From the IMG/VR virus record IMGVR_UViG_2737471863_000001: a stretch of DNA of 33,695 bases; one strand, written 5' to 3'. Position 1 is the first letter of the stretch. Every line of letters begins with the position of its first letter. The DNA is from a virus. Taxonomy: Duplodnaviria; Heunggongvirae; Uroviricota; Caudoviricetes. The translations under genes and the position numbers were made by a program. Positions 1,537-1,564 of this stretch are shown here, piece after piece. The notes under the pieces were generated by a model, which was not told the origin of the DNA, ran no database searches, and saw nothing but the letters and a program-made list of their open reading frames with translations.

Positions 1537-1564
1537 GACGATCGATATGATGTTATCGATCGTC
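1537..1564. promoter_or_regulatory. perfect 11-bp inverted repeat with two GATC sites upstream of com-mom; candidate Dam-methylation-sensitive operator
   Basis: gacgatcgata (1537-1547), spacer tgatgt, tatcgatcgtc (1554-1564); GATC at 1540-1543 and 1558-1561; lies about 75-100 bp upstream of the com ATG in the 92-bp spacer 1491-1582. Confidence 0.45.

Follow-up and report, generated by a model that had tools for sequence, protein, structure and literature searches.

A natural two-GATC variant of the phage Mu mom operator, putatively controlled by Dam and OxyR, upstream of com-mom in a Mu-like prophage

A perfect palindrome at positions 1537-1564 of the 33,695-nt stretch of viral DNA that we analyzed (hereafter, the window) is probably the inner core of a Dam-methylation-sensitive site at which the host regulator OxyR represses the com-mom promoter, homologous to the mom operator of phage Mu. 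Mom is a toxic DNA-hypermodifying enzyme, and its control by Dam/OxyR, C, and Com is a classic case of phage epigenetic regulation. Judged by its sequence, the window operator represents a naturally occurring form, with two GATCs, of the Mu mom/agn43-type switch, the mechanism of which is already known.

All genes around the palindrome are on the minus strand, and it lies, as an earlier note on this DNA had placed it, in the only spacer upstream of com, which gene coordinates define as a single 119-bp segment (1464-1582). On its upstream side is a DUF4376 tail-fiber-assembly gene (1583-2149, minus), and on the other side are com (1278-1463, minus; Pfam Zn_ribbon_Com, E = 2.5e-07; RefSeq), encoding the zinc-ribbon translational activator of mom, and mom itself (minus; Pfam Mom, E = 1.2e-75; RefSeq), encoding the DNA adenine hypermodification enzyme and extending over 623-1357 by the RefSeq start or 623-1327 by the start equivalent to that of Mu. 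The window is identical at this locus to Escherichia coli RM11911, where the sequence belongs to a Mu-like transposable prophage that has inserted into gspE and has com-mom at the right end. This prophage encodes a transposase, Gam, an activator of the Mor family, a head of the Mu type, and a contractile tail. Its Mor/C-family late activator gene (27161-27610, minus; Pfam Mor, E = 3.6e-30) presumably encodes the activator of the com-mom promoter. Unlike in Mu, the region upstream of com-mom (window 1583-5307) contains neither a gin invertase nor an invertible G segment. It instead encodes an 874-aa tail fiber (2157-4781), with an assembly or DUF4376-type gene of 188 aa on either side (1583-2149 and 4741-5307), and RefSeq marks parts of the 1583-5307 region as pseudogenes in RM11911.

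On the plus strand, the palindrome reads GACGATCGATA tgatgt TATCGATCGTC, i.e., two 11-nt arms (1537-1547 and 1554-1564) that are 100% complementary across a 6-nt spacer, with GATC sites at 1540-1543 and 1558-1561 that are 18 bp apart, start to start. Both the perfect 11-bp repeat around N6 and the spacing of its two GATCs were as previously described. When arms were required to be 11 bp or longer and no more than 10 bp apart, the 33.7-kb window contained just two perfect inverted repeats, against a chance expectation of 0.08 per window in first-order Markov simulations. GATC itself was depleted ~2.5-fold (46 occurrences versus 114 ± 9 expected), and GATC-poor regions have been reported as a trait typical of prophages. 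Because of this window-wide depletion, the paired GATCs upstream of com are conspicuous; their 18 bp is the smallest GATC-GATC interval anywhere in the window. The Markov simulations and the GATC depletion together make a chance origin of the palindrome unlikely. The other close GATC pair (22152 and 22176) lies inside a coding sequence, with nothing regulatory apparent. The sole other perfect inverted repeat with arms of at least 11 bp (13061-13089, GGAACAGCTGCC-cctgc-GGCAGCTGTTCC) is located between the open reading frame of a tail-assembly chaperone (13120-13515, minus) and the tape-measure gene (11240-13033, minus), a region that harbors a programmed frameshift site in Mu-like and other tailed phages, and this repeat may be a stimulatory hairpin for frameshifting.

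Comparison with Mu revealed a closely related control region. Read toward com, the upstream sequence is ...catATAGaaaacgaCGATCGAatcaattaaaTCGATCGgtaatacaGATCgATTATGCCCCAATAACC... in Mu and ...tgtATAGtttatgaCGATCGAtaacatcataTCGATCGtcggtttgCATCagTTGTGATTAAATACC... in the window, and a MAFFT alignment of the two was free of gaps from TATAG via GACGATCGA-N10-TCGATCG to the AATA(A/C)CC activator box. Mu and the window have in common the arrangement ATAG-N7-CGATCGA-N10-TCGATCG and its position upstream of com-mom, and both the distance between GATC1 and GATC2 (18 bp) and that between GATC2 and AATA (28 bp) are identical. In Mu, Dam methylation of three GATCs in a 43-bp region blocks OxyR binding and so allows mom expression. 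The window lacks such a set of three within ~43 bp: the position of the third, promoter-proximal GATC of Mu, 13 bp past GATC2, reads CATC in the alignment (1527-1530, minus) after a single G-to-C difference and is not a Dam target, which leaves two methylatable sites. The proposal that the palindrome marks the counterpart of the OxyR/GATC region of Mu mom, with two GATCs in place of three, thus finds support in the collinear alignment, the identical spacings, and the near-identical core of a chromosomal cah operator (see below).

Further differences from Mu concern both the operator and its surroundings. The inverted repeat has 11 perfectly matched bp in the window versus ~7 to 9 bp in Mu, and, of the two OxyR half-sites described below, the first is stronger (8 versus 7 of 10 positions) and the second weaker (5 versus 7 of 10) than in Mu. 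The window is also without the T6 run that Mu carries between the activator site and the -10, its promoter region from activator box to -10 is ~11 bp shorter, and a full-length comparison of its late activator with Mu C gave only 32% identity. Mom, in contrast, shares ~97% amino acid identity with Mu Mom, while the DNA of com and the control region is only ~79% identical to Mu (623-1600 versus L001 2140-3103), and the locus is therefore mosaic.

We compared the region with the OxyR half-site consensus ATAGxTxxxAxCTAT, taken from work on gtr and opvAB, to which proven half-sites match at 7 to 10 of 10 positions; for reduced OxyR, half-sites are typically 32 bp apart, center to center. Half-site 1, ATAGTTTATGACGAT (1559-1573, minus), matched at 8 of 10 positions and was among only three positions in the window that scored at least 8. 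A weak half-site 2, ATCGTCGGTTTGCAT (1528-1542, minus), followed 31 bp away, the same distance as in Mu, with 5 of 10 matches, which falls short of the 7 to 10 seen in proven half-sites. The two half-sites together make up a 46-bp site (1528-1573) that scored 13/20 and was in the top three of the window, where two other places score equally. Within it, the distal GATC (1558-1561; the equivalent of Mu GATC1) overlaps OxyR recognition element 2 (CGATc, approximating CTAT), and the proximal GATC (1540-1543; the equivalent of Mu GATC2) overlaps element 3 (gATCG, approximating ATAG). The outer-left element is a perfect ATAG in the window and is hence not methylatable.

These matches also changed how the palindrome itself is to be read. 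The earlier note had described a symmetric operator; the palindrome is real, but the conserved unit is a ~46-bp OxyR-type site (1573-1528, minus), of which the palindrome forms the inner core, consisting of the two inner recognition elements and the flanking ATA/TAT. Its center is 0.5 bp off that of the 46-bp site because half-site 1 extends further out than half-site 2 matches, and its perfect 11-bp symmetry exceeds what the OxyR consensus requires. The spacing of the reduced form fits agn43 (16/20), Mu, and the window, whereas an oxidized-form spacing (7-nt gap) centered on the palindrome gave only 12/20, in a register that misfits agn43.

Downstream of the putative operator, a candidate late-activator box of the C/Mor type, GATTAAATACCCCCAGCC (1503-1520, minus), aligns with the C site of Mu, with 4 of its 18 columns variable; the box AATACCCCCAG upstream of com resembles the late-promoter boxes of Mu. 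The late promoters of the prophage itself share a motif that differs from this com activator box. A conserved hexamer TATTAC (1476-1481, minus) is a candidate -10 of uncertain position: its separation from the AATA box is 34 nt, whereas the four late promoters of Mu all have 29 nt, so that the operator-to-promoter distance carries an uncertainty of ~5 bp.

Two repeated features of this prophage are worth describing here. A shared 25-nt hairpin with a T-run, GAAGCCGGTAAATCCGGCTTTTTTT, followed by NTGCCTYCSGCA, is present at ~27115-27150 and ~19405-19435 (minus), where it precedes the genes for the endolysin (GH108) and the head protease. It may represent a terminator-promoter unit common to both genes, or a dyad recognized by the activator of the Mor/C family. 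The com promoter carries a related GCCCTCCGGGCGG without the GAAGCCGGTAAATCCGGCTTTTTTT hairpin. Separately, an exact 11-nt direct repeat, GTGATTAAATA (minus strand), lies on either side of the operator: the copy at 1584-1594 forms the last codons and stop of the tail-fiber-assembly gene, where similarity to other com-mom cassettes starts, and the copy at 1512-1522 forms the left part of the activator box. This repeat may be a recombination junction of the com-mom cassette.

From these elements, we infer how the switch would operate. To an OxyR tetramer in the reduced-form geometry, the minus strand would offer four contact elements spaced 11, 20, and 11 bp apart, namely, ATAG (1573-1570), CGAT (1562-1559), ATCG (1542-1539), and GCAT (1531-1528), where both inner contacts overlap a GATC. 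On DNA whose two GATCs lack methylation (as in a dam- host) or are transiently under-methylated, OxyR would occupy ~1573-1528, directly upstream of the activator box (1520-1503), and would hold the com-mom promoter off whether or not the late activator is present. Dam methylation of both GATCs would be expected to exclude OxyR, after which mom transcription would depend only on the late activator of the phage, and mom translation on Com.

A close counterpart of the palindrome core is chromosomal. RM11911 carries an agn43-like cah gene in the host chromosome, ~18 kb from the prophage end, and its operator, ATAGaataaaACGATCGATAaaacaggTATCGATCGTtgttatcGATCg (L002 39573-39619), scores 8 + 8 = 16/20 for its half-sites at reduced-form spacing. 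The cah core, ACGATCGATA-N7-TATCGATCGT, has 10-bp arms around a 7-nt spacer, is centered on the middle of the tetramer site, and is almost identical to that of the window; the K-12 agn43 operator, ATAGaataaaaCGATCaatatctattttatcGATCgtttatatcGATCg, resembles the window operator more loosely. The similarity of the cah and prophage palindromes may reflect either shared ancestry or convergence. The agn43 operator is, in published accounts, a simple repressor site at the promoter that undergoes heritable ON/OFF switching, whereas the window site lies upstream of a presumably activator-dependent phage promoter. The agn43 operator also differs in carrying three GATCs (at spacings of 19 and 13 bp), two half-sites that both score 8/10, and a gap that is one base longer. 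The overall layout of four elements, ATAG-N7-CGATc ... gATCG-N7-(C/G)xAT, is common to agn43, cah, and the window and agrees with the experimentally defined agn43 operator (ATAG-N7-CGATc ... gATCG-N7-CGATc). In the sites of the window, Mu, agn43, and cah alike, the GATCs coincide with OxyR recognition elements.

Salmonella gtr and opvAB show the same placement of GATCs within OxyR half-sites at reduced-form spacing. They differ in having three or four half-sites, with alternative activating and repressing positions of OxyR, while the window displays one tetramer site. Probes of gtr with only two GATCs lose OxyR binding once methylated, and two sites can therefore suffice.

The strict symmetry of the palindrome might instead reflect the operator of another symmetric protein, be it a phage protein (a repressor, Ner, or a Mor/C-type activator) or a host protein other than OxyR. 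Such a protein would account for perfect 11-bp arms that surpass the OxyR consensus, and for the ATA/TAT just inside the GATCs, which is conserved without a known OxyR requirement. However, the arm was found nowhere else in the prophage, nor with one mismatch in a regulatory position, and there is therefore no sign of a phage regulon; the motif shared by the prophage late promoters is a different one; and two operators outside any phage circuit have similar cores, almost identical in chromosomal cah and related in K-12 agn43. We consider this explanation quite unlikely.

The OxyR reading gains from the conservation of the site. The window-type spacer was present in 49 of 5426 complete E. coli genomes and in many IMG/VR prophage contigs, whereas among the isolated phage genomes of INPHARED we found none, with matches limited to com-mom and tail-fiber parts. 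Over 22 distinct window-type sequences, only 1 of 22 columns varied in the palindrome arms and 1 of 9 in ATAG+N7, as compared with 3 of 6 in the loop, 5 of 9 in the flank at 1582-1574, 7 of 16 at 1536-1521, and 12 of 21 at 1502-1482. In three loci (L020, L025, and L051), the gene upstream is a different one, and similarity begins ~10 to 20 bp upstream of ATAG, from which it follows that the operator travels with com-mom as a cassette. One degraded copy (L055; E. coli bR_120_Kylling, NZ_CP182374) has kept the palindrome and the DUF4376 gene, with com and most of mom deleted directly downstream of the operator.

We extended the comparison to a family of 85 com-mom loci with Mom identities of 70 to 99%, representing 50 distinct upstream sequences. 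A GATC cluster was found at the homologous place in 83 of the 85, with the sites always on OxyR recognition elements, and the proximal GATC2 was likewise present in 83. Half-site scores at the homologous positions ranged from 5 to 9 of 10, versus a background of 2.4 ± 1.3. Counted as distinct upstream sequences, 19 fell into the {1,2,3} class (Mu among them, and with cah included), 16 into the {2,3} class (of which some carry an additional GATC 31 bp upstream, on element 1), and 15 into the {1,2} class, which comprises the window type and three separate lineages (L135, L004, and L132) that retain exactly this pair; in L135, the operator reads GATCGATA-N6-TATCGATC. Two-GATC operators are thus ordinary among com-mom cassettes. 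The only two loci without an upstream GATC cluster, L133 and L134 (IMG/VR contigs whose Mom is ~70% identical), may come from hosts without Dam/OxyR control.

These counts bear on the notion that the element is a decaying remnant of a Mu-type operator that no longer binds OxyR usefully, with com-mom under the late activator and Com only. While half-site 2 matches at only 5 of 10 positions and CATC stands at the position of the third GATC, the arms and ATAG+N7 stayed almost invariant in 22 diverged copies in which the neighboring bases vary freely, which argues for ongoing selection, and the independent lineages L135, L004, and L132 also keep exactly the {1,2} pair. Decay is, accordingly, decidedly improbable.

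The inverted repeat could also act at the RNA level, as a hairpin in read-through transcripts of the tail-fiber operon that serves as a terminator, 3'-end stabilizer, or processing site separating the tail genes from com-mom. The transcript would fold into a 12-bp stem (minimum free energy of -23.8 kcal/mol in a 101-nt context, z = -2.55), and there is no other terminator between the tail-fiber-assembly gene and com. Yet the homologous Mu region showed no significant fold (z = -0.35) even though it keeps the GATC pair, the element accompanies com-mom rather than the upstream gene, and what is constant across the family is GATC position, not pairing. No true compensatory changes were seen in the stem; one copy (L033) loses an outer pair and gains an inner one. 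An RNA function as the explanation of the repeat thus appears very unlikely. A Rho-independent terminator in the strict sense, with a G+C-rich stem and a U-tract, can be dismissed, as the stem is followed by GGTTTGCATC instead of a U-tract and a terminator scan made no call.

With the palindrome read as the core of an OxyR site, the locus suggests that many enterobacterial prophages have kept the Dam/OxyR layer within a mobile com-mom cassette. We also considered, as a rather unlikely extension, that the two-site symmetric operator with its agn43-like core makes com-mom epigenetically bistable in lysogens. Some cells would then be methylated and permissive, and others OxyR-protected, unmethylated, and locked off, such that, upon induction, phage modified by Mom and resistant to restriction would emerge from only a fraction of the cells, and progeny modification would be subject to heritable bet-hedging. 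The bias of the switch would be tuned by the site set present, which in nature is {1,2}, {2,3}, or {1,2,3}. The main value of the finding lies in the family-wide pattern, in which the Dam sites of natural variants fall on differing combinations of the four elements that OxyR would contact. Experimenters have used the G-to-C change to CATC to remove a Dam site while leaving the OxyR consensus untouched, and the window naturally carries exactly that GATC-to-CATC change. Such natural variants may offer material on how many and which methyl groups exclude OxyR, and on why mom needs Dam.
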